Assembly (NCBI GenBank): GCA_000165345.1 | Contig: CM000429.1 | Location: 576,001 to 640,000, forward strand | DNA: 64,000 bases | Reading direction: 5' to 3' | Shown here: piece after piece, positions 4,928 through 59,923 of the stretch | Position numbering within the stretch: position 1 is the first letter of the stretch | Layout of the letters: every line of letters begins with the position of its first letter | The notes under the pieces: generated by a model | The model's input: the letters and a program-made list of their open reading frames with translations, nothing else | The model's database searches: none | Told to the model about the DNA's origin: nothing | Translations under genes and position numbers: made by a program

Positions 4928-6203
4928 ATGAAACGAGGTTTTTTAAAAAATCTCGTAAATAAACGAAGTTATGAACAGAAAAAAAATGAGACATTGAAGG
5001 TAAGGATATGATTTATGCATTGTATAACTCTAGATTGATTCTTAGGTTGAAATAGATGATTTTGAGTTATTTGAATTAATAGGTACAGGAAACTTTACTC
5101 AAGTTTTTCGTGCCTTTGATATAGTCAATAAAACATACGTTGCAATTAAAGTTGCTAACAAGTCACAATTAAGAGCATTGAAAAAAGAAGGTGAAATATT
5201 AAATGAAAAGAAAATATGTACTAAACTAAATAATTCCCGTTCAAGGAATGTAATTAAACTATTAAATTCATTTGCAAATGAAGAAAATGTTTATTTGGTA
5301 TATGAACTTTGTACAGATGGAGAGTTATGGCAAAAAATCCTCCCTATTGGAATAAAACCATTGAGACAAGCAGTTTACTATTTAGCTCAATTATTGATTG
5401 CAATAGAGGATATACACAATTTGAACATAGTTCATCGTGATATTAAAGCAGAAAACTGTTTGCTAATGAAAAATGGACAGCTTAAGTTGGCAGATTTTGG
5501 ATCATCAATTCATTTAGACGATGTTGTTTGCAACTCCCAAAATTGTGGTTCTTCGTGTGAATGCAGATTCACTATAAACAGAGGTAGAAGAGAATTTAAA
5601 TATTTTGTTGGGACGCCGCAGTTCATGGCACCTGAAACTATACGAAATAAGCCACCAACAAAAGCAGTTGATCTATGGAGTTTTGGTTGTACTGTATTCC
5701 AAGTGATTTGCGGATACCCTCCATTTAATGCTCCTAGTGAATTTCTTGTTTTTTGCAGAGTTTTTCAAAATGGATTGAGGTTTCCTCCAGATTTTCCCAA
5801 AGATGCAAAGCTATTAGTAGAGTCTTTACTCAAACAAGAACCTTCTGAAAGAGCGACAATTGAAGAGGTAAAGAAATCCAAATTTTTTGAAGATGTTAAT
5901 TTTAGAGAATTAATAAGTGAAAAAGAATATCTTAATTTTCCACCTTCATTGAAAGATTTATGCCTAATTCAGGTCGCAAAATCATATGAAAAGTATAAAA
6001 CGGAAGATCTAGAAAAGCTAAATGCTTTAGATGATTCAGACACAATTCTGGGAAGATTAAGATTCGAAGCTGAGAGAAAGGAATATGAAGGCCCGCGCGA
6101 TACATGGCAAAGCGAATTTTGCGACCAAATTTTCAATGAGAATATTTCAGGAAACACAAATAATTGCACTTCATCTTCTTCATCTGAAAGCAATAGTGAG
6201 TAA
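4928..6203 (+). CDS. PDK1-like AGC Ser/Thr protein kinase; join(4928..4999,5046..6203), one 46-nt intron GTAAGG...TTCTTAG
   Basis: Exon 2 encodes the Gly-loop GTGNFTQV, VAIK, HRDIKAEN, DFG and GTPQFMAPE; the C-lobe closely follows PDK1 (DLW..GC..YQ..G.PPF..EYL.F..I). The frame is closed by TAG at 5043 just after an acceptor; an upstream 24-codon ATG exon ends ...TTG AAG|GTAAGG in phase. Confidence 0.75.
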
Positions 6204-6311: not shown

Positions 6312-6384
6312 TAGGAAGAACGGGAATCGAACCCGTGACCTCTTGCGTGTGAGGCAAGCGTCATAACCCCTAGACCATCCTCCT
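6312..6384 (-). tRNA. tRNA-Val (anticodon CAC)
   Basis: 73-nt cloverleaf on the minus strand: acceptor AGGAGGA/TCTTCCT (one G.U pair), D-loop AGGGGTTA, anticodon stem CTTGC/GCAAG with loop CTCACAC, T-arm ACGGG-TTCGATT-CCCGT, discriminator A, followed by a T-run (Pol III terminator). Confidence 0.85.
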
Positions 6385-6729: not shown

Positions 6730-7077
6730 TTCAGTTTCAATTGAGGGAGTTAACTCGTAATATTTGCAAATATAAGATCGTGATATTGTAAACTATTGGT
6801 AGGTAATTCCATAAAAACACAAATATAAGTAAATTAATTTATTTTTGGCTTAAATCTCTTTGATGATTAAATTTTTAGGCAGTACATTATTCCCTAATTA
6901 GTTTCAAAGCGTTATTAGTACTTGCTTTTTTAGGTTACCGCTTCTGCAAAGATCCTAAAATTTTAAGCGGTAGTTGTAAAACTTGAAATAACATAAATTT
7001 TGACTTGTAGGAAGTAGCAGCTTTTAACTATTTGACAGTATGAATTCTATTTTCTTTAAAGTGCATTTAGTTTGAAA

Positions 7078-9791: not shown

Positions 9792-10271
9792 ATGCCTCAA
9801 GAGACAGCTCTAATTTATCGCCCTTTGAAACTATCTGACATTTTCAAGATTAACAAAGTTAACTTGGACAGTTTTACAGAGACATACAACATGAATTATT
9901 ATGGAGATTATCTTTCAACCTGGCCTGAACTTTGTTTTGTATGCGAAGCACCAGACCATTCAATAGCGGGCTATCTTGTTTCCAAAGTTGAAGGAGAGGG
10001 CGATCAATGGCATGGCCATGTAACTGCCCTTTCTGTTTCTCAACAATATAGAAATTCGGGTGTTGCAACTAAACTTATGAAATTCTTAGAAGACATAAGC
10101 ACACAGTTGAATTGTCATTTTATTGACTTGTTTGTGAGGCCTTCTAATGAGAAAGCAGTCAAATTTTACAAGCAACTCGGATACTATGTACACCAAACAA
10201 TTCCCTCATATTATACTGATGAAGATGGGTATGACATGAGAAAACTGATTTGCAATAAAAATCTGGAGTAA
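9792..10271 (+). CDS. NAA20: N-alpha-acetyltransferase 20 (NatB catalytic subunit)
   Basis: 159 aa from the first ATG; near-colinear with NAA20/Nat3: FNxINLDxxTETY, WPE, WHGHVTALSV, FIDLFVRPSN..AVKFYKQLGY, EDGYDMRK. Confidence 0.85.
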   Translation: MPQETALIYRPLKLSDIFKINKVNLDSFTETYNMNYYGDYLSTWPELCFVCEAPDHSIAGYLVSKVEGEGDQWHGHVTALSVSQQYRNSGVATKLMKFLEDISTQLNCHFIDLFVRPSNEKAVKFYKQLGYYVHQTIPSYYTDEDGYDMRKLICNKNLE

Positions 10272-15719: not shown

Positions 15720-16003
15720 ATAATTTGTTCCTAATCTCTAATTATTTTTTTATTAATATTAATCTTTATAACTTATTATTTTATTAGAAAATTGCTACAA
15801 TCTATTAATTCGTGTGTAATTAAAAAGTTTTGCCGGTAAAAAAGGTACCGGGAAAAAATTTATTCTAAATTCTTGTCATAAATTTTCGCAAGAACAAAAA
15901 AAAAATAAGATTATTGAACAGATTCAACTGAGACTTAAATTAAGCTGGAATTAAGGGATTCAATATCTTATTATTTAAATTGGTTTTAATTACTACCTTT
16001 GGG

Positions 16004-20449: not shown

Positions 20450-22531
20450 TTAGTCATCGAGGAAGGAGGAGTAGTATCTTTCAGTATTGTAAAGGCTGCA
20501 AAAAACCTGGTTGCCGCCAAACCAGCGGTTATTAAGTGCAGGAACAGCAATTTGTGCCATGGATGGCGACTCAAATACGACGAAAATACGTACTCTATCC
20601 GAAGGTTTAGAAATATTGTTCGAAACATGTATACGAACGTCGTAAACTTTTCCATATTTACTGCACTCTATTTTAACCTCCTCTTTAAGTTCATCATCAA
20701 TTTCATCAGGGCCAACCATATTTGTAAGCAGAATAATGTTGGTGCTACTAGCAGATCCTGAAATTGCACCGGGGATCTGGTATGGCGCAGGCCCATTGCT
20801 CAATGGATACCCAGGTGGTTGTTGGTATATTGGGAGTGGAGGCGGAGCCACATTAGGCATTTGCATCATTGAAGGTAAAACCATTTGATGAGGAATACCC
20901 ATTGAGGGCATTTGGGAGGGTATCACATTTTGAATAGGATTAATCATAGGTATTTGGCCAACTGTGGCTCCAGAAACTCCTGATTGAGTTCCTCCGCCCC
21001 CACCGCCTACTTGAGGTTTAAGCGCAGTTGCAACATTAACTTTGAGTTGTTTTCCGCCTACTTCAAAGCCATTCATAGTTTCTATCGCAAGTTTTGCTTG
21101 ATCTGCAGTACCAAATTCAATAAAGCCATAGCCACGATGGGTACCTGGCTTTTCTATTGAAGGGATTAATTGGCAACTAAGGATAACACCAAAAGTCTTG
21201 AAAATATGCCTCAGATCGTCAGTTGTAAAAGAGTAGGGAACAGAACCAATATAAATTCTGTTTTGTGAATGAGTTGCAATTCCTGTTCCGTGAGTAGTTT
21301 CTGATTGAATTTGATGATTTTGATGGGTAATATGGTTGTTATTAAAAACAGCAATATTTGGATTAATGACATTCCCTGAGCCCCCTCCTCCTATGCCTCC
21401 GCTTCCGGATTGATTACCATTACTAGATGCCGCATTAGTAGGCCTGCCTACCCTAATTGGTCTTCCTTTTAGTACAAACCTGTTCATTGTGGCCAAAGCC
21501 ATCTCTGCTGACTCCTGTGATGTGTACTCGATAAAGCAGAAGCCTTTAGAGCGGTTGCCTTCTCTGGGCATGTCAATATTCACGATTGGGCCGAATGAGC
21601 CAAAAACCTGCTTAAGATCCGCCTCGTTCAGTGAATAATCCAGAGAACCGACATAGATGCGAGATATCTGACTGCTTTGCCTGGGCCCCGCCCCTGTTGT
21701 TGTACCTGAGCTCACAGTAGAGTTTGCTCCGATACTATTTCCGGATCCTATGGTAGAATGTCCAGGACCCATACCCAAATTAGAATTCGAGTTAGTTACA
21801 ACTCCATTATTTCCAGTTAAGGTACCAGATACCCCTGAGAAATGGCCATGAGGATTTCCTGGTACGGGAGCTAAGTTCGGGGAGTTGCAGCTATTGTTGC
21901 TCTGAGCGTCCCATCCCGAATTTGCTCTTTTCCTGCGTTTCTTATGGCTTGAGTCAATTGTACCTGAATTATGAGGCGAAAAGGAACCGCTGATTTTGCT
22001 AAACTCCTCAACACTCTGACCCTCCTCCAGACTAGGACTCCTAGACCTTCTTCTAGGTATCCTAGGGATACCCTTTATTCCCTGTTTGTCTGATTTTCCA
22101 GAGGCAGAATTATCGGTAACAGTCTCAGTTTCGCCAGGCTCCTCTCCCTCTTCAGAGGCAGCTTCTCCACCTGTCAACAGACCCTCCTCGGTGCGAGATC
22201 CGATACTCAGATCCTTTACCTTACCATTTATTAATTTCCTATCATTTTCGTAACTACTTACATCATCCTCTGATACATCCCCAGTAGGATGCCCATTTAA
22301 GTTAGGATCCGGTACTGAAAGCTCCGTAACATTGGCAGATGCATAGCCTTCTTCCCCAGCTTCAGTTGGGCCCGATTTTTCGAGACTTGCGAGGTCCTTG
22401 GACTCTACTTCCTTATCTGAGAAAGTGCTAAGACTACGGCCTTCCTCCTCCTCCTCAACCTCTTTATTATACCCAACTTCTTCTTCTCCAACCTTCACAA
22501 CTTCAAGCTCAGAAGCTCCTTCATCAATCAT
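20450..22531 (-). CDS. PUF60/poly(U)-binding splicing factor-like RNA-binding protein (2 RRMs plus C-terminal UHM)
   Basis: Two RRMs (RIYVGSL..KGFCFIEY; RIYIGSV..RGYGFIEF) and a C-terminal U2AF-homology motif; long acidic/Ser-rich N-terminus; ATG at 22531. Confidence 0.75.
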   Translation of the reverse strand: MIDEGASELEVVKVGEEEVGYNKEVEEEEEGRSLSTFSDKEVESKDLASLEKSGPTEAGEEGYASANVTELSVPDPNLNGHPTGDVSEDDVSSYENDRKLINGKVKDLSIGSRTEEGLLTGGEAASEEGEEPGETETVTDNSASGKSDKQGIKGIPRIPRRRSRSPSLEEGQSVEEFSKISGSFSPHNSGTIDSSHKKRRKRANSGWDAQSNNSCNSPNLAPVPGNPHGHFSGVSGTLTGNNGVVTNSNSNLGMGPGHSTIGSGNSIGANSTVSSGTTTGAGPRQSSQISRIYVGSLDYSLNEADLKQVFGSFGPIVNIDMPREGNRSKGFCFIEYTSQESAEMALATMNRFVLKGRPIRVGRPTNAASSNGNQSGSGGIGGGGSGNVINPNIAVFNNNHITHQNHQIQSETTHGTGIATHSQNRIYIGSVPYSFTTDDLRHIFKTFGVILSCQLIPSIEKPGTHRGYGFIEFGTADQAKLAIETMNGFEVGGKQLKVNVATALKPQVGGGGGGTQSGVSGATVGQIPMINPIQNVIPSQMPSMGIPHQMVLPSMMQMPNVAPPPLPIYQQPPGYPLSNGPAPYQIPGAISGSASSTNIILLTNMVGPDEIDDELKEEVKIECSKYGKVYDVRIHVSNNISKPSDRVRIFVVFESPSMAQIAVPALNNRWFGGNQVFCSLYNTERYYSSFLDD

Positions 22532-22652: not shown

Positions 22653-23020
22653 TGACAGCTCCCCGCAATGCCTCCTCGTTTTTTACAGCACGAGGTGCAC
22701 CTTACCGCCCAACTTGGCCCAAATTTTAGCCAGTATTTCAATGTAAGGTAGCTCCTCTCTGACGCCCCTCAAAGATTTAATTTCATTTACAGGTGAGGGG
22801 ACTAATTGCTCTCTTAAATTGAGGACTGGCAGAAACTGCATTACTAATTAATAAAAATTTTTGTTCTTTACCAGTTCTCTTAATCGCAATTAGTCTACGA
22901 TAGCAAACTAAGGCTAAAAGCTGTAACCTTTTATTTTCGATTCTGAAGATATAAAAATAGGTAGCAATAAAAATTACGAGAAATTTGAATAACATGAGGA
23001 TAATAGAATAAGAGGGCATA

Positions 23021-29275: not shown

Positions 29276-32200
29276 TTAATTACTAATAGGAACATCCTCT
29301 TGTTGGAGATGTAGGCGAATAACTATATTCATTGCTGCAAGCTCATTTGAAAGATATCTAAAGATATATGGAAGCGTAATAATTCTGCAGGGAGATTTAC
29401 AAACCCTACAAACCGCAATAGGTGGGATGCAATTTGAAAGCTTGCTACTAGACATTGATTGTGCCATAGCCCTCTTTGAAATGGAAGAGATTATAAGTCC
29501 GCATTTTGGACAAACATATGCTCTGTGCTCGTCTGAGCAAATAAGTAACCTATCAACAAGAATAGAGCTGACACCATACGAAATTAGAGAGTCTCTTTCC
29601 ATCTCTCCAAATCTAATACCACCATGTCTTTTTCTTCCCTTAACAGGCTGTCTAGTTAACGCGTCAATTGGACCGGTTGCTCTAACTTGAGCCTTATCAG
29701 CAACCATATGACGAAGTCTTTGATAATAAATAACTCCCATAAAGATATGACATGGGAGCTCTACTCCCGTCATTCCATTATAAAGTGGTTCGCACCCATA
29801 ATATTGGAAACCTGCTCTTTCTAAAGCTTTACCAAAGTAGTCCACAGTAGTCTTTTCACCCGCTTTGTCATCCTCGCAATTCTCTTCAGATCTTGAAAGA
29901 TCATCAGAAATATTAATGTTGAATGGAGTTGCATCCAAACTTCTTGCTCCATGAATACAAGCTGCTTTTCCTCCCATAGACTCTAAGAGCATACCGATAG
30001 TCATACGAGAAGGAAAACCATGCGGATTGAATAGAATATCAGGAACCATACCAGATTCGCTAAATGGCATGTTTTCTTGTGGCCAAAGCATTGAAAGAAT
30101 ACCTTTTTGGCCATGTCTAGAGGCAAATTTATCACCAACCATAGGATTTCTTACGATTCTTAGTTTGATAGACACCTTTTCTCCGTAACCAGAAGAACTT
30201 GAAGCCCCATCTCCTCCCCCTCCACTTAAAGAATCTTGTTGAAGTTCAATAGAAATCCCGCTAGCTATCCTATTAATTTTCTCGACAAATGCAACCTCAT
30301 CGTCATGATAAGTTTGAATAGTTGCATTGGAAGGGCCCCCTCCAGAACCTATACGTTCAACCCTACATATTGGTGAGCCTTTTGTAAGTCTTTGGCCAAT
30401 ATTAGGAAGCCCATCTGCTGAAAGCTCTTTAACAACTAGCTCACCGTCTGGCCCAATATTATGAAAGAAGTAGCTTTCTGCATCACTCTTTTTTGTAGCA
30501 CTAGGAGGAGCTGCTGAAATGATTTTGGTTTTATAGACACAGGCATGGAACATTCCTCTATCATAAGATGATTTGTTAAGAATCATAGCATCCTCCATAT
30601 CATAACCTGAATATGACATTACAGCAACGATTGCATTTGTTCCAGTTGGATATTCAGAAAAACCAAAGGATGAATATCCTTTAGTAATAATAGTTGGCTC
30701 TTGAGGAGTTAAAAGCCTATACATCTTATTGTCGGTTCTATATGGGTGGTTAAGGCAAGGAGTACCCATTGTTTGTTTAAGCATCTGGCACTGATACATA
30801 TTTCTTGGACTTTGGTTATGGTGAGCATAAGGAATAAGGCTTGCAGTAACTGATAGAATTGTTGATGGATGGAGCTCCATGTGAGTGTAGTTAACCGGTA
30901 CAGATGAAAGCACTCTGTCATTATCTTTAATTAGTTTCTTTAAAGCTTTAAGGTCGTTTTTTAGCTGTTCTTCAGACTCAGTATCCGAAATACCAATTAA
31001 TCTTTTTTGAATTTCAAGGAGTTTTGTTGATTTACGAGTCTCTTCTTCCGTTACACCAATATTCATCCATGGTTGGCCAAGCGGCCCAATCCAGTCTACT
31101 TGAGCAGTCTCAAGGTGCATAATTGGTCTTACAAGTCTTCCAGGAGCGGTGAAAATGTAAATTCCTGAAAACATACCAGAATCTGGTGGAACACATGCTA
31201 TTTCTGCATGAACCGGTAATACAGAGGGGTTTGTTTGCCACTTTAAGGTTCTTAATTTATTTTCCCATACCATAAAATCTTCTCTCGGGATATGAAATAA
31301 AACTCTACCATCTAGCATTACAGGAATGGATTTTGTTAAATCTGGTGAATATAAATCATCTCTTGAAGATGACTCTATACCCCAAGTTGAAGAAAGAGAT
31401 CCCAGCCCATCATCGCATGAAATACCATGTGAAATTAAATAATTTCTTAATCGTCTGAGAGTTTCTTGTGAATCCCATTGAGTCACAGGAATACAATCCT
31501 GGGAAAGATGGAGAAGTAAACCGCATGGCTCACCGTCAGGAGTATGTACTGGACAAAGAAATCCCCATGTTTCACCTGTTAATTTTCTGACATCCGTAGT
31601 CTTCATAGTGGTAAAAAACTGTCCTCTATGTACAGCTCTAAAATGGGATAGAAATCTATTAAAATTTAGTCTATCTGCAACAACAGTCCATCCTGATAGT
31701 TGTTGAAGGTCCAATTGAGTGGTTTTCACATTACCTGTTGCCATAAAATATTGGAGACGCTTAGGTATCATGGAAATATTTTTTGATAAAACTGATTTAA
31801 AGTATGCTGTATCTCGAAGCAGGTTAACACCATTTTTACTCTCTTTATTCTTTTCACCACTTTTAGATCTTATCTCAATCAAATATGTAGACCTTATCTT
31901 TTGTAGAAATGAAAAAATTGCATCTTTAAATAGTGCTGAGTATAGGTTTCCTGGAGATAATAATTCTTGATACGCAAAAGAATCTATAGACTCTTCACGA
32001 ATTTCATTAAGCTGAAGTTTGATTAGTTTTATAAACATTAAAATAAGGCATTCCAATTTTGCATTCCACTCTTCCAAATGGACTAACACATAATTATCTA
32101 TTAAGAATCTCCCTGCCTCTTGTAAAAGGCTACCTGGAGGAAGATGGAAGGCTACGCCCTCCCATACCAATCTACCTATTTGATGTAAGTATCGATTTTC

Positions 32201-33121
32201 TAAAATATCTGTATCTCCAGGCCCCTTATTTCCAAATGATACAGAATTAAATTCTGCATCAACACCGACTGAGTTATCAAGCCCCCATTCAAGAGTAAGC
32301 ATATTAATTGTGTTGAATAAATTTTCATCTTTTGGATTACAATATTGGAGGATCTTGCTCCTGAGCACATTTGAGTCATAAATTGATCCTACTGCCATTA
32401 ATAAAGGCCAGAATGGAATTAGCCACTCCTGTCTATTTAATAAAACTCTGTAAATACATTGATGATCAGACGTTCCGTATAGATAGTTTGCTGTAGAAGT
32501 TCCATCGTCTCTTAATGACCTCATTAAAACGGCATATTCCGAGCCAAATGAATCAAAGGTCGCAAACCTTGGACGTTTAAGTCCAATTGGATAATTACAT
32601 CTTTGTTGAATTACATACCTAATAACTCTTTCATTACCATTGATAATAAAGTAGCCACCAACCTCATTAGGGTCTTCGCCTTTTTCAACCAATTCCTTTG
32701 TACCAAGACCAAATAAATGGCAACTTGAACTCTTAACCATGATTGGAATTGTTCCAGCATAAATACTATGCTTTGAAACAGTATCTAAAGATGAATTATA
32801 ACCTTCAAATTCTAGCCATAGTGGAGCACTGTAACTAATATGTCCATTTCTGGCATGCTGAGGAGTCAGCTTTGTACCAGATGATTCAGAATTACCAAAA
32901 ATAGGCTTTCCTATTTTTGCAGATGTAACTCCTATTCTAAGGTATTCAGCTGGGCTATAAGCTGCATTTAGCTCGCAATCATCTTGAATAAATCCAGAGT
33001 CCACATAAATCTTGGGTAAATTCTTCACAATATTTTTTAACCCAACAGAAAGGAATGTATTGAATGATTCAATGTGCGGCCAAACTGCAGAAAGTAGTCT
33101 ATCCCGAGTCTGGTACTCCAT
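29276..33121 (-). CDS. RPA2: DNA-directed RNA polymerase I second-largest subunit (RPA2/RPA135)
   Basis: The N-terminus aligns with yeast RPA135 (VWPHIESFN, SSCHL, GGYFIINGNERVIR..QQRCNYP); GDKFASRHGQKG; C-terminal zinc ribbon CPKCG...CRVCKS; first ATG at 33121. Confidence 0.85.
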   Translation of the reverse strand: MEYQTRDRLLSAVWPHIESFNTFLSVGLKNIVKNLPKIYVDSGFIQDDCELNAAYSPAEYLRIGVTSAKIGKPIFGNSESSGTKLTPQHARNGHISYSAPLWLEFEGYNSSLDTVSKHSIYAGTIPIMVKSSSCHLFGLGTKELVEKGEDPNEVGGYFIINGNERVIRYVIQQRCNYPIGLKRPRFATFDSFGSEYAVLMRSLRDDGTSTANYLYGTSDHQCIYRVLLNRQEWLIPFWPLLMAVGSIYDSNVLRSKILQYCNPKDENLFNTINMLTLEWGLDNSVGVDAEFNSVSFGNKGPGDTDILENRYLHQIGRLVWEGVAFHLPPGSLLQEAGRFLIDNYVLVHLEEWNAKLECLILMFIKLIKLQLNEIREESIDSFAYQELLSPGNLYSALFKDAIFSFLQKIRSTYLIEIRSKSGEKNKESKNGVNLLRDTAYFKSVLSKNISMIPKRLQYFMATGNVKTTQLDLQQLSGWTVVADRLNFNRFLSHFRAVHRGQFFTTMKTTDVRKLTGETWGFLCPVHTPDGEPCGLLLHLSQDCIPVTQWDSQETLRRLRNYLISHGISCDDGLGSLSSTWGIESSSRDDLYSPDLTKSIPVMLDGRVLFHIPREDFMVWENKLRTLKWQTNPSVLPVHAEIACVPPDSGMFSGIYIFTAPGRLVRPIMHLETAQVDWIGPLGQPWMNIGVTEEETRKSTKLLEIQKRLIGISDTESEEQLKNDLKALKKLIKDNDRVLSSVPVNYTHMELHPSTILSVTASLIPYAHHNQSPRNMYQCQMLKQTMGTPCLNHPYRTDNKMYRLLTPQEPTIITKGYSSFGFSEYPTGTNAIVAVMSYSGYDMEDAMILNKSSYDRGMFHACVYKTKIISAAPPSATKKSDAESYFFHNIGPDGELVVKELSADGLPNIGQRLTKGSPICRVERIGSGGGPSNATIQTYHDDEVAFVEKINRIASGISIELQQDSLSGGGGDGASSSSGYGEKVSIKLRIVRNPMVGDKFASRHGQKGILSMLWPQENMPFSESGMVPDILFNPHGFPSRMTIGMLLESMGGKAACIHGARSLDATPFNINISDDLSRSEENCEDDKAGEKTTVDYFGKALERAGFQYYGCEPLYNGMTGVELPCHIFMGVIYYQRLRHMVADKAQVRATGPIDALTRQPVKGRKRHGGIRFGEMERDSLISYGVSSILVDRLLICSDEHRAYVCPKCGLIISSISKRAMAQSMSSSKLSNCIPPIAVCRVCKSPCRIITLPYIFRYLSNELAAMNIVIRLHLQQEDVPISN

Positions 33122-33576
33122 ATCGTCTATCAAAAACTGAGCTTATAAGCATATATACCTGAATTAAAGCTTTAGAACCAAACTACTGCCCAGATAAGAC
33201 AAACCAATTTTTTTTTCGTTTATGGATTTTTATGCGTTTTTGCCTCTTGTAAATTTGACCTTTAGCACTTTTACCATTTACCGGTTAAAAAGTACTGCGC
33301 GCGCATTTTCGATTTGCAGTCAATTAAAGAATTGGAAAAAAATTATTACTGGAAGAAAAATTTTAAATTTAGGAAGAACTACGTACTCAGTCAACACGCC
33401 TATTCGATTACTATTCTGATTTATTCCATGAAAACTGTATATCAAGCTTAGGCTCACTGAATATTAATTTTTTTTTTCAAGGCTGCCCTCCTAATCTAAG
33501 GCCTATTTTTTCGTCCAAATGGATCATGAAACCTTGATGAACCTGGATTAATTCAGTTTTTGAACATCCTGCTAAA

Positions 33577-36799: not shown

Positions 36800-38310
36800 T
36801 TACCTACATGAGTCTAGAATGTATTTTGCTTTGAATCCGTAATTGCTTCTATAATCACTGGTTCCAGTGGACCAGGAAGAAATGGATGCAAGAAAATTAA
36901 AGCACTCTTCTGTATTATCGAAAAGGCCTTCTTGTGTAGCTATTTGATTGAGCATTTCGGCCCCAAGATGCTGTGAAATCAAGCATCTGTGATGGCAACA
37001 GGGGGACATTATTATAATAAGCATAGAACCACTTTTCATCTCTTTAATAGCGCTTTGAGATGATTTAAGACCTAAGTCGAATCCATTTCCGCACAAATGT
37101 TTAGAAATTACAAAAATCTTTAGAATTTTTTTTTTTGCAAAATTGTTAATTATAGTTTCTTCAAGCCTAAAATGCATCAATAAGTACATTTTTATAATGA
37201 TTTCAAGTGCTGAACTTACCTCGAAATATCAGGGCCACCTCCATTTGATAAAGTAGTCAAGATATATTTGAGTTCTTCTTTACTGAGTTGTTCAACTTCT
37301 TCAATTGTCTGAATTTGTTTTCCTGATGAATCATGCATCCATATTTTTTGCTCAAGTAAAGTACTAATAATCCATGGTACATTTCCATTTCCCAAACTTG
37401 AGTACATATGAGCTCTTATTGACTCTTTAGAAATGTCTTCATTGTTGCAAACCAAAATTAGAGAATTAATATCAAACTGTTCAATATCAAGTCTTAATCT
37501 GATGGAAGAAATAGATTCATCAAGCTTTTCCATTTGTTTCCTCCTTGACTCTCTGTCAATTATCACACTTCTAAATTTAGAAGGTTTAATCTTATTTTGA
37601 GGCTTTCCACATTCTTTAATGAACCAATAAGACAAAATTGCATTTCCAGCTCCATACTCTATTATTAAAGAGTTTTCAGCATCAAATAAGAGGTTGTTAT
37701 TTGAATTATTACAAGATATAGAGTTTTCACTATTAATTAGTCTCTTGGTGAATTCTTTGGAAATACTTATAGCTTGTAGTTCATGCCTATTCAAATTTAA
37801 ATTATCAATATCTACCTGTCTTGATTCAAAATGGGGGTTTTTACCAAATTCACGTACACAAAAATCATGAAGTTTATCAACAAATTCCAATCTTTCTTTT
37901 GAAACTATTAATTTTTTCTTGGAATCTGAATGATTGTTTTTATTCGCTTTTCGATTGATTTCTTCTATATGTGAAGTTTCAGTTACTTGTAATTTCTCTC
38001 TAATATTCAACAAGTTGTGAGGAGGCCCATTATTATGCATACAAAATGGCTGATTAAGTTCATATGCAATATCTCTAACTCTAGAGCACTTTCTAATATG
38101 AGATCTTATTTTATTTATAGAAACAAAATGTCTACCATCAATAAAACAAGGAATAATCTTGTTAACTAATTTTTCATGATTCTCATCACAAACTTGATCT
38201 TGTATTCCTTTGTGTAAGTTGCAGAAGTTAGAATCTCCATATCTAGGAAATTTGCAATTTCTAGATTTTGACTTTATAAAAAAAGTGCAAGTTTGTACCT
38301 GAATTTCCAT
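36800..38310 (-). CDS. TRM13: tRNA:m4X 2'-O-methyltransferase TRM13; join(complement(37220..38310),complement(36800..37166)), 53-nt intron
   Basis: N-terminal CHHC zinc fingers (C..FPRYGDSNFCNLH; CFIDGRHFVSINKIRSHIRKC), a methyltransferase core, and C-terminal HLCGNGFDLGL...CCHHRC; GTAAGT...CATTTTAG joins the two track ORFs in frame. Confidence 0.7.
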
Positions 38311-44197: not shown

Positions 44198-44684
44198 CTT
44201 GATTCAGCCATTTCAGCACAGACTAAAAATGTGGCAGCTATATAATTTTTTATTCTTCTATTAACTCTTCACACGCCCAGATTTTTGTTGCTTTAATTCT
44301 GCAACTACAATTAAACTTTAATATTAAGAAAATAATTTACCGCCAAGTATTTGATGCACTACTATGCCGGCATACAATTATCTTTCAAAGACCACACAAA
44401 TTGGAATTCACTAACAAAAAAAAAAAAGATATAATTGCTCGAAATTTTAAAAGCCTCATTTTTTGTAATCAATTAAAAGCAATTATTATATGATCGTTTA
44501 CCTACATGCAAACTATTTGAAAAGTTAATTCTATCTCTTATGTATAATATAATTTCTATGAATATTCTGTATAAATATGAAAAGGATATTTTCTTGCTGG
44601 GGGAGACTTATTTATGACTCCCTTTTTTCATTACCCTTATCTTCAAATAAAACACTTTTTTTTCTTACTATATAACAATTTTTG

Positions 44685-52545: not shown

Positions 52546-54572
52546 ATACATTTATCGATATCTCACATTTAAAAATTAGAAATTTGTTAGTTATAGCTAC
52601 TTATAGTTTACATAATTACTTAGTAAAACACAATTAATTTTAGATTTAATCTTGTTTTCCTCATCATTTAAAATTAAAAAAATTATACGTAAGACTCTCC
52701 CCCGCCACACATGGCGCCATAACGTCACGTCGAGCCACGCAATTTTTTTGCAAATTGAGATTGAATCTAATCAGTATTAATCTGTCTTTCATTACTTGAA
52801 ATTCAGAATTCAGTAAGCATATTGCTCATTTTCAGTGGACCTTTAGGATTAAAGCTTTTCGTTTTCTGATGTGAATGGCACTATCATGGTAATTATAACG
52901 CTTCGATTGGCTCTATCATGGTAATATTTCTTTGATGGCTGTACAATGATTTGATTTGTATCATGGAAGATATTTGCATTTGATTTTTGTCACTAATGAA
53001 CGATGATAGTATTGAATTATGTGTTTTATGAGTGGAAAAACCACTCCAACTCTTTCGGAATTTCCTTATGAGTTTCTTTTATTATCTGGTTGTTAAAAGG
53101 GTGAACTATTTTTTTTCAGGTAATATCGATGACTTGCATAGTTTGATTATCTTCATGGTTTTTCATATCTTTATCAACTGGACCTGTTTTTGCCTAACTC
53201 TAGAACATATTTTTCTACTATTATCATCAGTATTCAGCAGTGACAAACCTGATTAACAAGCTATTGGTAAACTAAGGTAAATCATTGGTTGAGAATGAAA
53301 ATATCCTTTCTTGACTTAGTGGATCAATCTTCCTTGTGACTTGCCAGAGTTCCCCTAATATTTATTGTCAGATGAACGTGTATCAAATGACCTCTTATAT
53401 GTGAATTTATCCCTGAATTCCTAATCTTAGTGAGTATTATTCTAATTGGCCTTTGAACAGTATTTATATTACTGGTAGACCTTTTAAGGTTGCTTCTGTC
53501 TCAAATTCCATGACATCTCTTACCTGAGCTTATATATATCTTTTCCAAAGCCTTTTAAAAAAAAAATTGTTTGAAGTTTCAGATATCTTGAAAATATTAC
53601 GATCAATTTATCCATGTTTATTGTTAAAGAGCATTAGTTCCTTGGGATAGAATTTTGGTGTATTATGATTGAGTGTATATAGAGTTGCTTTATCCATACT
53701 TGGTTCCGGTAATACTTAACTAGATAATATTATTTGAACTATTTTATCTGGCAGTCACATGGAAGGGGTACTTGTACATTGTTGTGATCATTCCATTTTC
53801 TTGGCTTGTTATTTCAAAAGTATCGTCACTGCTGGATATATGATATACAATATTGAAAACAATTCGTCCATTTATGTATTTTTAATCACCAAACATTCAT
53901 TTGGTTTATACATTGTGCTACGCCATCATCCGTTATTCCAATCTCTATCTTATTTGAAATACAACAATTCAACGTTTTCCAACAAGCTTGTCTTATTTTT
54001 CTTTTTAAACTTTTAATTATTGCCATTAGATGAAGATATGTTGTATCATTGGATTTTGTGTATTCAAAGCAATATACATAATATTTGTAAAATAGTAATT
54101 TTATACAGGCTGAATTGTTTTTCTTTTAGGGATAAAGAAGATAACTTATTTCGAGAAAAGAAGATTTCTTTATATTGAAGATTTCAAGGATGCCAATTGA
54201 TAACGAACTCAAGCGGTTCCGAGCTATGAATAACTAAGATTTATAAGGATGTCTGTAATGCATCTCTTAGCATACTAATTCAGGTTATGTTTCAAGTTTA
54301 ACGCTTTTCCTAATGTTTTGGTTAGGTTATAAAGTCAATTTTTGAAGAAAAAGAGGAAAGAGGCTTTAATCTATTGTGGCGCAAATTTGCTCGAGATTAT
54401 GGGAGATGATAATTGATGTTCTAATGGCAGTGTTTTCAACATAATTAGAGGGATGTGTAGATAACTGGCGGTGCTTGATGATGAGAAATTTAGATTGTGT
54501 TCGGATGTCGAATCCGCTTCGAATTTGTTTCATTAGGTGAGGTTTAGTTGCAAGGTCATGTTTATGCATGTT

Positions 54573-54586
54573 GTGCGCGCCAAAAG
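54573..54586. promoter_or_regulatory. E2F-like site (TTTTGGCGCGCAC on the minus strand), about 290 bp upstream of UTP21
   Basis: As above; located in the ORF-free GC-richer island. Confidence 0.35.
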
Positions 54587-54869
54587 TTGCTGCCATCCTC
54601 TAAGGTTGTATGAATGCCTTTCATCGTATTAGTCGCTTATTCTGAATGAGGTTTAGTGACTTTTTGCGAAAAAAGTCTTAATTTCGGAGTTAGGGTCATT
54701 AGTTCTTTTTAATTTTCTGTTTTTTTCCGATTATGTCTGAGCGGTGCCTCTGCTGTTCTGGTTAAGGATATACGCGGGAGACGGCCTTGTATTAGGCGGC
54801 AAGTGTGGTCTATAGTAATTTTTGACAATTGGTTGTAATGAGACTGATAATTGAATTAAATGAAATAAC

Positions 54870-57815
54870 ATGGAGGTGAACTCGAGTAATTTGTTAGTTC
54901 CTTTACATAGTATAGGATTTGTGACAGATGAAGTTCCATTTGCATTGGAGAAGCTAGGAGATGAATATTTTATTGTAGTTGCAACAGGTCACTACTATCA
55001 AGTATATGACTTGGACCAACTAAGGATTAAATATATATCTCAGAGGATGGAGAATAGAATAGAGAATTTGGTTACAAAGTATGAGACTGTTTATGTATCT
55101 ATGGGCAATAAAATTGTTGGTTATAATAGGCATGAAAAAACGTTTGAGATTGAACATAACTCAAGAGTAAAAGGAATGCTTGTTCTTGGTGAATTATTGA
55201 TTTCATGGGATAAGGAGACCATAATAGTTTCTGAGATAGATTCTAATAGACTAAAATGTGAAATTCTGGTTGATATGGATGTCTCCGAAGAAATTGTCAC
55301 AATTTTACATCCAGTCACATATTTGAACAAGGTATTAGTAGTTACATCGAAAGGATGTGAACTTTGGAATATTAATACTAAAAAAATGATACATAGATTT
55401 TCTTCAATACAAGTTGTTTTAAATGCTTCCAAAAGTATGAAGAATAAAATTGATAATAACGATAAGCAGAAAATAATTACTGCAGTAGCAAGCTCTCATC
55501 CAGATATAGTTGGGATTGGAACTCAAAATGGGATGGTGTATACACTAGATATTGCAAATGATATTATTTTACTTTCTCTCGAGCATATGCCTGAGCAGAA
55601 AGGGGTGAGAAGTGTAAGCTTTTGCTCTGAAAAGGCCATTTTGATTTCAGGTTGTGAAAATGGAGATATTGTACTATGGGATTTAGAAAATGCACGAGTT
55701 TTAAGTATATTAGACTCTGCTCATGAATCTGAGGTTGTTAAAGTTCAGTTTGTTCCAGGTGTTTTAATGTTTATTACCTCCGGTAAAGATAATGCACTAT
55801 TGGAATTTGTTATTGATAACCAAAATTCTCCACCTAGAGAACTTAGATCTAGGAGAGGGCACTTAAGCTCAATAATTAAAACACAGTTCTATAATGCTCT
55901 TCCAGAAAAAAGTAGAGACTTACTTTGTATTAGTAACTTTAGGAATTGTGGTTATCTTGGAAAAACATCTACAATACAACAACATCAAAATCGCATTTTT
56001 TCGCAAAACTCTCTTAAAAAGAAGTTTAATGAAAAGTATCAATTCCCCTTTAGCAGGTTACCACCTATAATAGATTTCTCATTTGCAGAATCTAGGCATT
56101 TTGACTGGCCAAATATAGTAACTATTCATCAAGGAATGCATGAAGTATTTGTTTGGAGTGGGCATAACTTTGCATTAACTCCAAATTTAATAACATTAGA
56201 GAACGTCCAAAGGCTTGACAAAAATAAGCAATCTAAGAGTAATCAATCCCAAAATTTTGTATCGCATGGTCTAACAGTTAAAAGAAAATCTCTACCTTTA
56301 GCAAAAGCCATCTCAGTTTCAGGTTGTGGAAACTATGTAGTTGTTGGATACTCTGATGGATCCATACATAGATTTAATCTACAATCATGTATTCATTCTG
56401 GGCAATTAATTCTTCCTGATAATTCTGAAATTAATCAACCAACTATGGAAATTCTTTCAATACATATTTCACACTCCACAATGGTTCTTTGCATTATAAG
56501 AGATTTGGATAATTACTACTTATCAACATGGTCGGTTAAGCCTATTAAATATTTAAATACCAAGATTATCCTAAGTAGAGCTTCTGTTCTATCAAATATA
56601 GAGACTCAAGAAGTGTTTATTTCCAAGCTGTTTGGATATTTATTAGCTTTAGGATTATCCGATGGCAGGGTTATTCTTTATGACTTCCAATCACAAGTAA
56701 TTTCTAGAGAATTCCAATGTGGTCATCATCATATTTTAGATATTACAATGTCTTCAGACAATAGGTGGATTGCAGTTTCAACAAAAAATAGTGAACTTTT
56801 TATATTTGATATAATTTCTTCAAACCTTTTGGATTGGGTCAAATTCAAATCTCCAGCTATTTGCTGTGTATTTGATCATTCAGATGCATTTCTAATAACA
56901 TCTCATGATCAATCAAAGGGATTACTTTCTGTTTGGGCAAATAAACATGCCTTAAGCATTTCAGTTGGAATTGAAGGTTTATCAAATCCTCCATCTGAAC
57001 CTTATTATATAGATGATCCTCCTAATAGAGTACTTTACTTTGAAGATTCAGACCAAACTTTAAAGAATGATAAAGATTCTACAAAGGCATCAGAATCTAG
57101 TGACAATACAAATTTGTCTGACTTTGATCTTCCTGAAAATGGAGACTATGATCCTTCCTTAATAGACAGAAAACTAATGTCATTTTCTGGAATTCCATTT
57201 TCAACTCTTCAAGCAATCTTATTTATTGATGAAATTAAAGAAAGAAACAAACCAATTGAACCACCAAAGAAACCAGAGAGTGCTCCATTTTTTCTACCAA
57301 ATACTACAGAATTCTCATCTACAATTCATAAACCCTCGAAAGAAAGCGATAATGAGGAAATAATCTCAAAAGATTTGGCAGAATCTAAAGATCCAAGTTC
57401 ATCACTTAAGACTGAGCTCCAAGAACTTTTAGAAAAAACTTCCTTGGATGATTCAGACTCTTTTTTAAGTATTACTAAGCTTTTAAAATCCAAATCTCCT
57501 TCTGGTGTAAATCTTCTTTTGAGACAATTAGGGCCTCTCAGTGGAGGATCTTTCCAAGAAATTGCTCAAATGATACATTACTTTAATATATCTATATCAA
57601 AAAGAACAGATTCTGAGTTGATTCAAACATACCTAAATATCTTTCTTAAAATTCATTCCACAACAATACTGGAAAATGAATCGGAATTTAAAGATTTTCA
57701 AGATATTATTCTTAAGCTTAATAACCTTGTAAAGAGTGACTGGGACTCTCTCCAAGACAGGCTTCATAATATCTCATGTTTTCTAAAGTTTGTTACAAAT
57801 ATTCAAATGGATTAA
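54870..57815 (+). CDS. UTP21: U3 snoRNP protein UTP21/WDR36 (WD40 repeats plus C-terminal Utp21 domain)
   Basis: The N-terminus aligns with yeast Utp21 (PFA.G..G..FYIV..G...QIYD); RELRSRRGH; EPPKKPESAPFFLP (Utp21 EAPKKSEKLPFFLQ). Confidence 0.8.
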   Translation: MEVNSSNLLVPLHSIGFVTDEVPFALEKLGDEYFIVVATGHYYQVYDLDQLRIKYISQRMENRIENLVTKYETVYVSMGNKIVGYNRHEKTFEIEHNSRVKGMLVLGELLISWDKETIIVSEIDSNRLKCEILVDMDVSEEIVTILHPVTYLNKVLVVTSKGCELWNINTKKMIHRFSSIQVVLNASKSMKNKIDNNDKQKIITAVASSHPDIVGIGTQNGMVYTLDIANDIILLSLEHMPEQKGVRSVSFCSEKAILISGCENGDIVLWDLENARVLSILDSAHESEVVKVQFVPGVLMFITSGKDNALLEFVIDNQNSPPRELRSRRGHLSSIIKTQFYNALPEKSRDLLCISNFRNCGYLGKTSTIQQHQNRIFSQNSLKKKFNEKYQFPFSRLPPIIDFSFAESRHFDWPNIVTIHQGMHEVFVWSGHNFALTPNLITLENVQRLDKNKQSKSNQSQNFVSHGLTVKRKSLPLAKAISVSGCGNYVVVGYSDGSIHRFNLQSCIHSGQLILPDNSEINQPTMEILSIHISHSTMVLCIIRDLDNYYLSTWSVKPIKYLNTKIILSRASVLSNIETQEVFISKLFGYLLALGLSDGRVILYDFQSQVISREFQCGHHHILDITMSSDNRWIAVSTKNSELFIFDIISSNLLDWVKFKSPAICCVFDHSDAFLITSHDQSKGLLSVWANKHALSISVGIEGLSNPPSEPYYIDDPPNRVLYFEDSDQTLKNDKDSTKASESSDNTNLSDFDLPENGDYDPSLIDRKLMSFSGIPFSTLQAILFIDEIKERNKPIEPPKKPESAPFFLPNTTEFSSTIHKPSKESDNEEIISKDLAESKDPSSSLKTELQELLEKTSLDDSDSFLSITKLLKSKSPSGVNLLLRQLGPLSGGSFQEIAQMIHYFNISISKRTDSELIQTYLNIFLKIHSTTILENESEFKDFQDIILKLNNLVKSDWDSLQDRLHNISCFLKFVTNIQMD

Positions 57816-57987
57816 GATACTTTATTATGATTTAATTTCATTGATTTCACTCATTTCACTTTCAAAAATTTTAATAGTTTGTTTAAACTCTTCAAAACCT
57901 TATAACTTACTTATTTTCTTTCAATATTTTTGTTAATATTTTTTTATTATTTTTTTTCAATTTCTACTTGTGCAATTCATTTTTAGA

Positions 57988-58009
57988 TTAATGGTACCGG
58001 TACCATTAA
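57988..58009. repeat. Perfect 22-bp palindrome TTAATGGTACCGGTACCATTAA, with a second partial copy (CGGTACCGGCATTAATGG, 58019..58036) 9 bp downstream
   Basis: The sequence is its own reverse complement; GGTACCGG core plus ATTAATGG arms repeated; lies about 140 bp upstream of the 58151 ATG. Confidence 0.8.
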
Positions 58010-58150
58010 AAATTATAACGGTACCGGCATTAATGGAAAAAATGTCAATAAGATCAAAATTGAAAATTTAATAAATAATTAATAAATAATTACAATGATT
58101 AATTTTTAAAGTTATTTTATTTTGATAATTTCAGTTATAACAATATTAAA

Positions 58151-59923
58151 ATGAGTGATAGAAACATTGAACAATTATTAGAAGTAATTAATGGTAATAG
58201 TACTCACCAAAGTAATTTGGAGAAACTAATAACTAATTCTATACCAGAATTAGAGTCAAATTTTGAGATTCTTGAATTAGAAAAAAAGCTAATTATCACT
58301 AAGTTTTCATTGGGCCTAATGGAATTTAAGTCAGATTCAAAAACTTTTCATCAAGCAAGAATGTCTTTATTGGCCTTAATTTTGGAAAAGCAAGAAATTA
58401 AGGAAATACTTGAATTTAACTTTAATGGCTTTAATCCTTCAGTCCATATTTTGCACTCTGTGGAAATAGCTTCTTTGGAAATTAGATTATTTTTGGAATC
58501 TAAGCTTGTAGAGTTGGAAGACTTTAAATTTAGCCTTGATGAATCAAAGGATAAAAAACAAGTACAAGACGATGAGGAAATTGATCTTTTAACAAGTAGC
58601 TTTCGAATATTAGATTCTCTTCTTACTCAGCTAAACAAAGATGAAAATTTGGATTTTTTGGAATTTTCTGAGAAGATTACAGGAGTTCAGGTAGTTGAGT
58701 TATTAGATTCATTAAAGGGCACTGCAAAACATTGTATTGAATTTATATTGGATATTGAAGGAATCATTCGAGATGAATATGAAATGGATCTTAATAAGGG
58801 AGTATTAGAACTTAAAGGTAATACTAACTCTAAAACATCAAGTTTGTATTGGATTATTTATTATTCTTGCTCAATATCATCTAAATGGCAAATTAACGAG
58901 CCTGATCAAGACCTTGATAAGTATATTAAATTGCTAGAAATTGCATCCAGGTATTTGAATCCTCTCCATTTTGCATCTGTATTCCCCACACTCATCCATA
59001 TTTCTGTAATAGACTGGGCAAATATTCCTGGTATATTAGAAACTGTATTAACATCAATGCTTTCATTCTCTACTTTAATTAAACAAGAAAATAAGAAAGA
59101 AGGGATTTATAGTGGATTATATTATGCAGCACTCCTAATCACATCTGCCTGGTGGTCTCCAGGAATAGATACATATAGAATAGCAGCTTCAAAAATGAAA
59201 GATGGTTCAAGATCTCTTGAATATATTTCAAGAAATTATTTAAATCTGGATCACTTAGATAAGATACAGGATAGTAAAGTCTCTTTATCAAAACTTAGAG
59301 TAGAAGAAGAGAAGAAATCTGGGACAAAAATGCCAGAATTCGTACCTTTAGATACAAATGCAATTCCCGAATACTCATTTGAGGATAATCCTGGAGTGGA
59401 TAGAGTTAGAAGGATCTCGCTCATTATTTTTGGACTAATTAAAGAGATTTATCAAGAAGATATTAATCAATTTCAAGGAGACCAGATTAATAAAGTCTTG
59501 TTTATTAGACATTTAGATGACCCAAATTCACAAAATTTCGAGAAATTCTCAGCTTTTATTCAGACCCTTATTTGCATTTTAACATTATTAACTTGTAGAA
59601 TCCAAAACTCTTATGTACCATCAGAACTTTGGAATATTATATTTAAACTAATAATTGTATTGACTCCAAAATCTAGTAAAGGGTATTATTACGATTCCCC
59701 TAGAAAAATCACATTTTTTATTTCATTACTTAGAACTACAGCTATAGCATTTTCGAGTGGATATTCTGATCAAGCCAAGCAATTTGATAAATTACTCGAG
59801 GATCTAAAAATTGAAACAACATATAATATTCCAAAGCTAATAATAAGAGACGATTGTGAGGAATTCTCTGAGCAAGATGAAGAATCAATCAAATTCTTCC
59901 GTAATTTATTAGATATTAGTTAG
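58151..59923 (+). CDS. Hypothetical 590-aa helical protein
   Basis: Clean ATG ORF with no domain I can identify. Confidence 0.45.
   Translation: MSDRNIEQLLEVINGNSTHQSNLEKLITNSIPELESNFEILELEKKLIITKFSLGLMEFKSDSKTFHQARMSLLALILEKQEIKEILEFNFNGFNPSVHILHSVEIASLEIRLFLESKLVELEDFKFSLDESKDKKQVQDDEEIDLLTSSFRILDSLLTQLNKDENLDFLEFSEKITGVQVVELLDSLKGTAKHCIEFILDIEGIIRDEYEMDLNKGVLELKGNTNSKTSSLYWIIYYSCSISSKWQINEPDQDLDKYIKLLEIASRYLNPLHFASVFPTLIHISVIDWANIPGILETVLTSMLSFSTLIKQENKKEGIYSGLYYAALLITSAWWSPGIDTYRIAASKMKDGSRSLEYISRNYLNLDHLDKIQDSKVSLSKLRVEEEKKSGTKMPEFVPLDTNAIPEYSFEDNPGVDRVRRISLIIFGLIKEIYQEDINQFQGDQINKVLFIRHLDDPNSQNFEKFSAFIQTLICILTLLTCRIQNSYVPSELWNIIFKLIIVLTPKSSKGYYYDSPRKITFFISLLRTTAIAFSSGYSDQAKQFDKLLEDLKIETTYNIPKLIIRDDCEEFSEQDEESIKFFRNLLDIS

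Follow-up and report, generated by a model that had tools for sequence, protein, structure and literature searches.

The UTP21 intergenic region contains two TACCGG boxes

The stretch analysed is a 64-kb window of Cryptosporidium parvum chromosome 1 (the window, in what follows, denotes this whole stretch), with a G+C content of about 32% and an ORF density of about 75%. The elements described here lie in a 335-bp intergenic gap between two genes arranged head to tail, UTP21 and a gene encoding a 590-aa protein, and the UTP21 3' UTR must fall inside this same gap. The features of the locus are as follows:

54870..57815, plus strand: UTP21, small-subunit processome (Pfam), the upstream gene
57981..57988, plus strand: TTTTAGAT block directly 5' of box 1, conserved in eight of eight species as TTTTAGATY
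57988..58009, unstranded: perfect 22-bp palindrome TTAATGGTACCGGTACCATTAA, read from the sequence as box 1 plus C. parvum-specific symmetric flanks
57995..58002, unstranded: box 1 core TACCGGTA, formed by overlapping TACCGG on both strands; the conserved part by cross-species comparison
58020..58027, plus strand: box 2 GGTACCGG, with its TACCGG core at 58022-58027, centred 27 bp from box 1
58029..58036, plus strand: ATTAATGG, a direct repeat of 57987-57994
58151..59923, plus strand: gene for a 590-aa protein, the downstream gene and presumed target of the boxes

The product of the 58151-59923 ORF matches exactly a C. parvum protein encoded on CP044422.1. A Pfam search detected no domain in this protein, which by sequence is known from Cryptosporidium alone, with three clusters out of 1.8 billion representatives, and is predicted by structural modeling to adopt a generic ARM/HEAT-like helical solenoid, with a predicted disordered insert at residues 336-414. 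The gene order UTP21, 590-aa gene, LSM gene and SNARE gene is kept in all the species compared, among which the identity of the flanking-gene product ranges from 93% down to 49%. Searches of the UTP21-58151 intergenic region with Rfam (at a permissive E-value) and ARAGORN revealed no RNA genes, and the sole RNA-gene hit in the whole window with ARAGORN and Rfam gathering scores is a tRNA-Val at 6312.

Two further observations concern the gene content of the window. Directly 5' of UTP21, 2.3 kb of DNA (52546-54869) lack any ORF longer than 85 aa, which is unusual in a compact genome; this stretch has no Rfam match, and within it a CCGGTA stands alone at 53706 and E2F-like sites are located at 54467 and 54795. 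The TRM13 tRNA methyltransferase (minus strand, 36800-38310) is divided into two adjacent ORFs (36800-37189 and 37216-38310), which suggests a short intron or a frameshift.

The 22-bp palindrome is only moderately unusual in length

The original prediction, made from the letters alone, had described an exact 22-bp inverted repeat followed by a second core flanked by the same arm, some 140 bp upstream of the 58151 ORF in the intergenic region following UTP21. These observations were all borne out: the palindrome spans 57988-58009, the second core and the repeated arm are found at 58020-58027 and 58029-58036, the distance from the end of TTAATGGTACCGGTACCATTAA to the ATG at 58151 is 141 bp, and Pfam identifies the upstream gene as UTP21. 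The palindrome is flanked on the outside by A and A, so that its symmetry stops at 22 bp. Together, 57987-58004 and 58020-58036 constitute a larger imperfect inverted repeat made up of the ATTAATGG copies and the boxes; the ATTAATGG flank is partly common to Cryptosporidium chipmunk genotype I (ATTAAT) and missing in C. meleagridis.

The same prediction considered such a repeat very unlikely to arise by chance, a claim that holds better for its base composition than for its length. No other perfect palindrome in the window is as long as TTAATGGTACCGGTACCATTAA, the runner-up measuring 16 bp, but perfect palindromes of at least 22 bp appeared in 21 of 300 locally composition-matched simulations (approximately 7%), and the analytic expectation for a perfect palindrome of this length is 0.056 per window. 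Palindrome length by itself is thus only moderately unusual in AT-rich DNA. When at least 8 G/C bases are required, the expectation drops to 0.0075 palindromes per window, and GGTACCGG occurs four times in the window versus 0.15 expected. Two C. parvum assemblies of independent origin (a Logan read-set assembly and CP044422.1) show an identical sequence, and related boxes are found at the orthologous position in seven other species, indicating that the palindrome is not the assembly or cloning-site artefact that had been put forward as a way for the prediction to fail.

A TACCGG core is conserved upstream of the 590-aa gene

The locus was compared across eight species: C. parvum, C. meleagridis, chipmunk genotype I, C. 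ubiquitum, C. canis, C. felis, C. xiaoi and the species represented by SRR31860986. MAFFT misaligned the intergenic regions of the distant species, and we therefore anchored the comparison on TTTTAGAT and relied on alignment-free tests of hexamer presence instead. Every one of the eight species has TTAGAT immediately 5' of its boxes, and in each of them boxes of the (G)GTACCGG or TACCGGTA type (near-matches in the SRR31860986 species) lie 4-55 bp after the TTTTAGAT block.

Exact TACCGG hexamers occur at the orthologous site in seven of the eight species, with their CCGG centres 104-183 bp 5' of the downstream ATG. Two exact boxes are present in six of these (C. parvum, C. meleagridis, chipmunk genotype I, C. 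ubiquitum, C. canis and C. xiaoi), with CCGG centres 104-167 bp from the ATG and a box-to-box spacing of 20 to 53 bp. The C. felis region has one box, at -183, together with a stray TCCGGTAA at -31, and the SRR31860986 species presents near-matches only, GGTACCCG and GGTACCGT (TACCCG and TACCGT). The DNA around the boxes cannot be aligned in the distant species. In C. meleagridis, the flanks are approximately identical to those of C. parvum and the spacer between the boxes is wholly different, with both TACCGG cores intact.

The symmetry to which the original prediction had given most weight is, in contrast, a peculiarity of the C. parvum lineage. Perfect symmetry around box 1 extends over 22 bp in C. 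parvum but over just 4 bp in C. meleagridis, a very close relative; it likewise covers 4 bp in C. canis and C. felis, 8 bp in C. ubiquitum and C. xiaoi, and 10 bp in chipmunk genotype I. The full TACCGGTA octamer is found in C. parvum box 1, C. meleagridis box 2, both chipmunk genotype I boxes, C. ubiquitum box 1, C. xiaoi box 1 and box 1 of the C. felis RPB3 gene, and the remaining boxes consist of TACCGG alone, an asymmetric hexamer. The boxes point in different directions in different species, and half- and full-palindrome forms both occur. As judged from these sequences, the conserved unit is a 6-8 bp centre, TACCGG(TA), and not the 22-bp palindrome; the most conspicuous part of the element is hence its least conserved one, which calls for caution in reading such symmetry.

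We also scanned all 2080 hexamers (with reverse complements merged) for presence across orthologous intergenic regions relative to the composition of each region, bearing in mind that presence counts come from related species and are not independent events. At the main locus, GGTACC ranked first and TACCGG second, followed by GTACCG and ACCGGT, when all eight species were considered, and TACCGG ranked first among the six divergent species. In the unlinked region upstream of RPB3, ACCGGG came first and TACCGG second.

The comparison also bears on how the symmetry may have arisen. Chipmunk genotype I shares GTACCGGTACC with C. parvum, as well as the ATTAAT after box 2, suggesting from the sequences that a 10-bp palindromic core is ancestral to the group that includes C. 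parvum and chipmunk genotype I; in that case, the lengthening from 10 to 22 bp would have taken place within the lineage of C. parvum. Its right arm, TACCATTAA, complements the conserved left flank exactly, as a templated quasi-palindrome mutation would give, and such a mutation is a possible origin for the extension.

The TTTTAGAT block was also considered as a general motif and rejected, as it showed no enrichment window-wide. The block may belong to the same promoter, or else mark where transcription of the next gene begins or where the UTP21 transcript has its 3' end. In its TTTTAGATY form, it bears a loose likeness to two published motifs of low robustness, motif 15 (GAYCTMD) and motif 19 (HTAGVTCW) (PMC3734150).

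TACCGG boxes recur upstream of RNA polymerase subunit genes

TACCGG boxes also precede two genes encoding RNA polymerase subunits in the window:

15828..15856, unstranded: RPB3 element TTTTGCCGGTA-N7-TACCGGGAAAA, forming an interrupted palindrome, with conserved counterparts in C. canis, C. felis and C. bovis
33279..33295, unstranded: RPA2 element TACCGGTTAAAAAGTAC, 158 bp 5' of the ATG at 33121 (minus strand) of an RNA polymerase I subunit gene

At RPB3, the CCGG of the two boxes are centred 154 and 169 bp 5' of the ATG at 16004. The element contains the only other GGTACCGG in the window (15844), which adjoins a CCGGTA at 15833 in the 284-bp region 5' of the gene. The orthologous sequences are CCGGTAAATATAGGGACCGGGAAAA in C. 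canis, TACCGGTATTCCGAATACCGGGAAAA in C. felis and CCCGGTAAACTCAATACCGGGAAAT in C. bovis, and the form kept in these three species and C. parvum is TTTTSCCGGTA-N7/8-TACCGGGAAAA, with a fixed centre spacing of 15-16 bp and a distance of 104-170 bp from the ATG. Overall, TACCGG is found upstream of RPB3 in four of five species; in the fifth, the gastric C. serpentis, a search for TACCGG upstream of RPB3 found none.

The position of the RPB3 pair is occupied in C. serpentis (9863-9880 of the sequence from that species) by two copies of GGGTATC in direct orientation, GATACCC on the complement, which lie 138 and 127 bp from the ATG. At the main locus, C. xiaoi presents GATACCC where box 1 is located. 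GGGTATC/GATACCC may be a diverged form of the TACCGG site.

The third instance lies upstream of RPA2 (29276-33121, minus strand), in the divergent promoter region between this gene and the 33577 gene, where TACCGGTTAAAAAGTAC is followed by GCGCGCGC (33279-33304). Its layout, read in C. parvum alone, resembles that of the RPB3 element. A metagenome scan with RPA2 found no relative, and a scan for TTTTAGATTAATGRTACCGG returned six contigs, all of them unrelated.

A Pfam survey of the ORFs identifies RPB3 and RPA2 as the only RNA polymerase core subunits among the approximately 30 genes of the window, and both have TACCGG boxes at about equal distance from the ATG. By a crude count, this co-occurrence of boxes and polymerase genes, which concerns two genes in one 64-kb window, stands at the level of approximately 1-3% and is suggestive. 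In the three well-placed loci of the window, the boxes lie 129-171 bp from an ATG. The motif is thus conserved upstream of RPB3 and present also upstream of RPA2, and is not the unique occurrence that the original prediction had named as an outcome against function.

Enrichment was evaluated on the window and on four loci of 16-21 kb from other species. In non-ORF DNA, 19 TACCGG sites were observed versus 3.75 expected (an approximately 5-fold excess), and in ORFs the 10 observed sites compare with 10.1 expected. Without the two conserved regions, the non-ORF count is 8 sites versus approximately 3.6 expected, a weak excess. In the non-ORF DNA of the window, GGTACC, GTACCG and TACCGG rank 10-12 of 2080 hexamers, after E2F-like and AT-repeat words only. 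The top hexamers, by a wide margin, are the E2F-like GGCGCC, TGGCGC, GCGCGC and TGGCGG, and the fact that these known words come first validates the approach. The TACCGG motif is rare, being found in perhaps one in ten promoters of the window.

TACCGG as a probable proximal-promoter site

A core conserved amid diverging flanks, over-representation in non-coding DNA and recurrence with a positional preference point to TACCGG being, most likely, a proximal-promoter site for a sequence-specific factor that acts on the downstream gene, with binding itself predicted from sequence. The proximal promoter of the 590-aa gene would harbor a pair of such sites, read by a protein that recognizes TACCGG on double-stranded DNA. 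Head-to-head overlap of two hexamers would generate the palindrome TACCGGTA, and the hexamer would also be used singly or as inverted pairs. Boxes located roughly 105-185 bp from the start codon would sit just upstream of the transcription start, where the bound factor may contribute to establishing or adjusting the transcription of that downstream gene. The symmetry over 22 bp would constitute a lineage-specific by-product in fast-evolving flanks, and not a functional unit.

The dimeric transcription-factor site envisaged in the original prediction agrees with this evidence in what concerns the site; a dimer bound to one palindrome is not obligatory, because many of the conserved boxes are just the asymmetric TACCGG. 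The occurrence of the box in either orientation, as half and as full palindromes, is in keeping with recognition of duplex DNA, and not of an RNA signal. The factor, by our guess, is most likely either an ApiAP2 or a Myb-related protein, neither being preferred. The RNA polymerase subunit genes are possibly under shared control, and the boxes might also work at the 3' end of the gene that precedes them, given that both conserved instances are found between head-to-tail genes. Two further candidates were rejected: CCGGTACCGG, the fungal Leu3 site, since zinc-cluster proteins are not known outside fungi, and AACCGGTT, the Grainyhead site, since its flanks differ and this family has no known member in Apicomplexa.

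Alternative readings of the boxes

The first alternative is that the boxes are bound by a factor acting, in the way of yeast Reb1, as a roadblock or boundary between tandem genes, which would terminate or insulate read-through from the upstream genes (UTP21 and MetAP) and keep the next promoter free of nucleosomes. The yeast Reb1 site, TTACCCGG, organizes nucleosome-free promoters and blocks read-through. The boxes are one base longer or shorter than this site, and the SRR31860986 species reads GGTACCCG. Both conserved instances are in short (220-335 bp) head-to-tail intergenic regions, many boxes are flanked by A/T runs and, as read from the sequence, AATAAA signals after the UTP21 stop are found only downstream of the boxes. 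The RPA2 box, however, lies in a divergent region, with no upstream transcript to stop. We consider this reading unlikely, and it overlaps with that of a transcription-factor site, a sequence-specific DNA-binding factor being needed in both.

It is very unlikely, in turn, that the boxes are non-canonical E2F/DP sites, that is, weak variants of the dominant promoter motif of Cryptosporidium. E2F-like hexamers head the non-ORF enrichment list, and TGGCGGT(A) sites are located at similar distances from the ATG (-62 to -175). Moreover, RPB3 box 1 (TTGCCGGTAA) is one base off the TTGGCGGTAA at 44340, and RPB3 box 2 (CCGGGAAAA) is one base apart from the E2F site GCGGGAAA. The boxes, however, are centred on CCGG without the GCGC/GCGG core and are not accommodated within TTTSSCGC, and the orthologous boxes listed here never switch to GGCGG or GGCGC. 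The TA of TACCGG is conserved, though E2F sites need no TA, and T-run flanks are present only at RPB3, the main-locus boxes of C. parvum having no T-run.

The original prediction also proposed a cruciform-forming element, and a structure-dependent signal could likewise take the form of a hairpin in the UTP21 3' UTR or in the 5' UTR of the next mRNA. The C. parvum sequence folds stably both as DNA (-12.4 kcal/mol, z = -3.6 vs shuffles) and as RNA (-18.9 kcal/mol, z = -3.7 vs shuffles), and pairing between box 1 and box 2 through species-specific arms is seen in C. ubiquitum (z = -3.7), in the SRR31860986 species (z = -4.4) and, more weakly, in chipmunk genotype I (z = -1.7). These folds follow from the motif itself, because two inverted copies of a palindromic word always pair. 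Box 1-box 2 pairing is significant in only three of the eight species, and C. meleagridis, C. canis, C. felis and C. xiaoi have no significant fold (z from -0.9 to +0.1). Complementarity of the arms is not kept, and the shrinking of the palindrome to 4-10 bp outside C. parvum, with inter-box spacing varying from 20 to 53 bp, indicates that a cruciform or other structural signal is not what selection maintains. The flips in orientation between species would not be tolerable for an RNA signal, and no Rfam match rises above chance. Altogether, we regard a structural element as highly improbable. Nothing was found in support of the replication or recombination signal that completed the original list of options.

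Lastly, a functionless palindrome, neutral, due to chance or introduced by cloning or assembly (KpnI and AgeI sites), would accord with the simulated frequency of such repeats and with the lack of conservation of the extended arms, but is largely refuted by the cross-species data, the core being conserved across species and also at a second locus, and is further opposed by the identity of the independent assemblies and the scarcity expected of G/C-containing palindromes, leaving it next to no probability.

The TACCGG box in the context of Cryptosporidium promoter motifs

Gene regulation in Cryptosporidium is poorly understood: its motif catalogue consists mostly of E2F, G-box and TGCAT-type sites, and most of its approximately 60 candidate DNA-binding proteins are without a known site. 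A box that purifying selection has clearly preserved throughout the intestinal Cryptosporidium clade provides a concrete probe for its factor, and its position before two RNA polymerase subunit genes suggests a housekeeping regulon that can be tested. The box belongs to a familiar class, that of conserved promoter motifs, and is not a new kind of element. What sets it apart is that the motif is missing from the accessible published Cryptosporidium catalogues, that it is placed at polymerase genes, and that it matches an oomycete motif, raising a possible link to a motif long predicted in oomycete pathogens.

TACCGG is absent from the 25 over-represented upstream motifs of C. parvum (PMC3734150) and is not reported among the motifs of sporozoite ATAC-seq peaks (bioRxiv 10.1101/2025.01.17.633476). 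None of the AP2 motifs named in the text of PMC4117751 (TGCAT, CACACA, G-box and GGTGCACC) matches it, and none of the motifs in the text and tables of PMC4117751 and PMC3734150 contains CCGG or GTAC, a comparison that covers all but the figure-only motifs (about five domains). Full-text literature searches for the core and for TACCGGTA yielded no apicomplexan report. Given its absence from the published motif and ATAC lists, TACCGG must be rare or stage-restricted.

Other motifs were noted during this survey. TGGCGGT(A) sites cluster 60-175 bp from start codons (e.g. 44340, 50326 and 60491), in line with published reports. At 22694-22710, GGTGCACC adjoins TTACCGCC, 172 bp 5' of an RRM-protein gene (20450-22531, minus strand). 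Palindromes centred on TTTGCAAA recur in non-ORF DNA (5267-5282, 6760-6773, 4608 and 52747), including the 16-bp TTCATTTGCAAATGAA and the 14-bp ATATTTGCAAATAT, and may constitute another promoter word, related to the published 'CAAT-box-like' TTTTGCM.

Comparison with known regulatory systems

Within Cryptosporidium, the closest parallels are found in two families of sites. ApiAP2 proteins are the main apicomplexan transcription-factor family, and two of them in C. parvum have palindromic sites, TGCATGCA for cgd2_3490 and GGTGCACC for cgd4_3820 (PMC4117751). [quoted passage not shown] The Cryptosporidium E2F/DP sites TTTGGCGGGAAA and TTGGCGCC (PMC3734150) resemble the boxes in lying about 60-175 bp from the ATG, in having a CG-centred GC core in AT-rich DNA and in being frequently flanked by T/A runs; they differ in their GCGC/GCGG core, as opposed to CCGG, in the conservation of TA in the boxes and in that orthologues show no interconversion between the two.

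Outside the Apicomplexa, the TACCGGTA octamer corresponds to M94, a predicted promoter motif of Phytophthora infestans (Roy et al. 2013, PMC3597505). Related forms are motif-9, GTACCGGTA, which is found upstream of 1,284 Phytophthora genes (Seidl et al. 2012, PMC3520976; sequence as quoted in PMC10031896), and streme-5, ATACCGGTAT, of Plasmopara halstedii (PMC10031896). The Cryptosporidium boxes share the sequence that defines M94 and motif-9, with TACCGGTA located upstream of start codons; the core is identical, and box 2 of chipmunk genotype I reads ATACCGGTAT. The oomycete motif is likewise an inverted repeat located a few hundred bases 5' of start codons, and is likewise known from over-representation and conservation, not from binding assays. 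The two lineages are nonetheless distinct, oomycetes being stramenopiles and Cryptosporidium an alveolate. The oomycete motif is abundant and tied to infection-stage and effector genes, whereas the Cryptosporidium motif is rare, its known neighbours are housekeeping genes and, unlike in oomycetes, many of its boxes are just the half-palindrome TACCGG.

A sister palindrome, TACATGTA, is bound by the Myb-related protein PsMyb37, as shown by yeast one-hybrid and gel-shift assays (PMC11134190). Both TACATGTA and TACCGGTA are 8-bp palindromes with the same TAC...GTA outer bases and only two differing central bases; PsMyb37 binding concerns TACATGTA, whose central dinucleotide is not that of the CCGG version, and by analogy offers a precedent for a Myb-related factor that might read such sites. 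A broader proposal would hold that TACCGG(TA) is an undescribed element, dating back to the ancestor of stramenopiles and alveolates and perhaps read by a Myb-related factor shared with oomycetes, that co-ordinates RNA polymerase subunit genes (RPB3 and RPA2) and associated factors in the manner of the yeast PAC box. We regard this combined proposal as rather doubtful.

Two yeast systems complete the comparison. The Reb1 site TTACCCGG is a near-identical word to the box. The PAC ('polymerase A and C') box is a short motif that was first noticed as common to the promoters of RNA polymerase subunit genes. It has another sequence and belongs to an unrelated organism, and the polymerase link described here amounts to two genes in one 64-kb window; the likeness resides in the placement of the boxes, with two of the three well-placed boxes of the window preceding RPB3 and RPA2.
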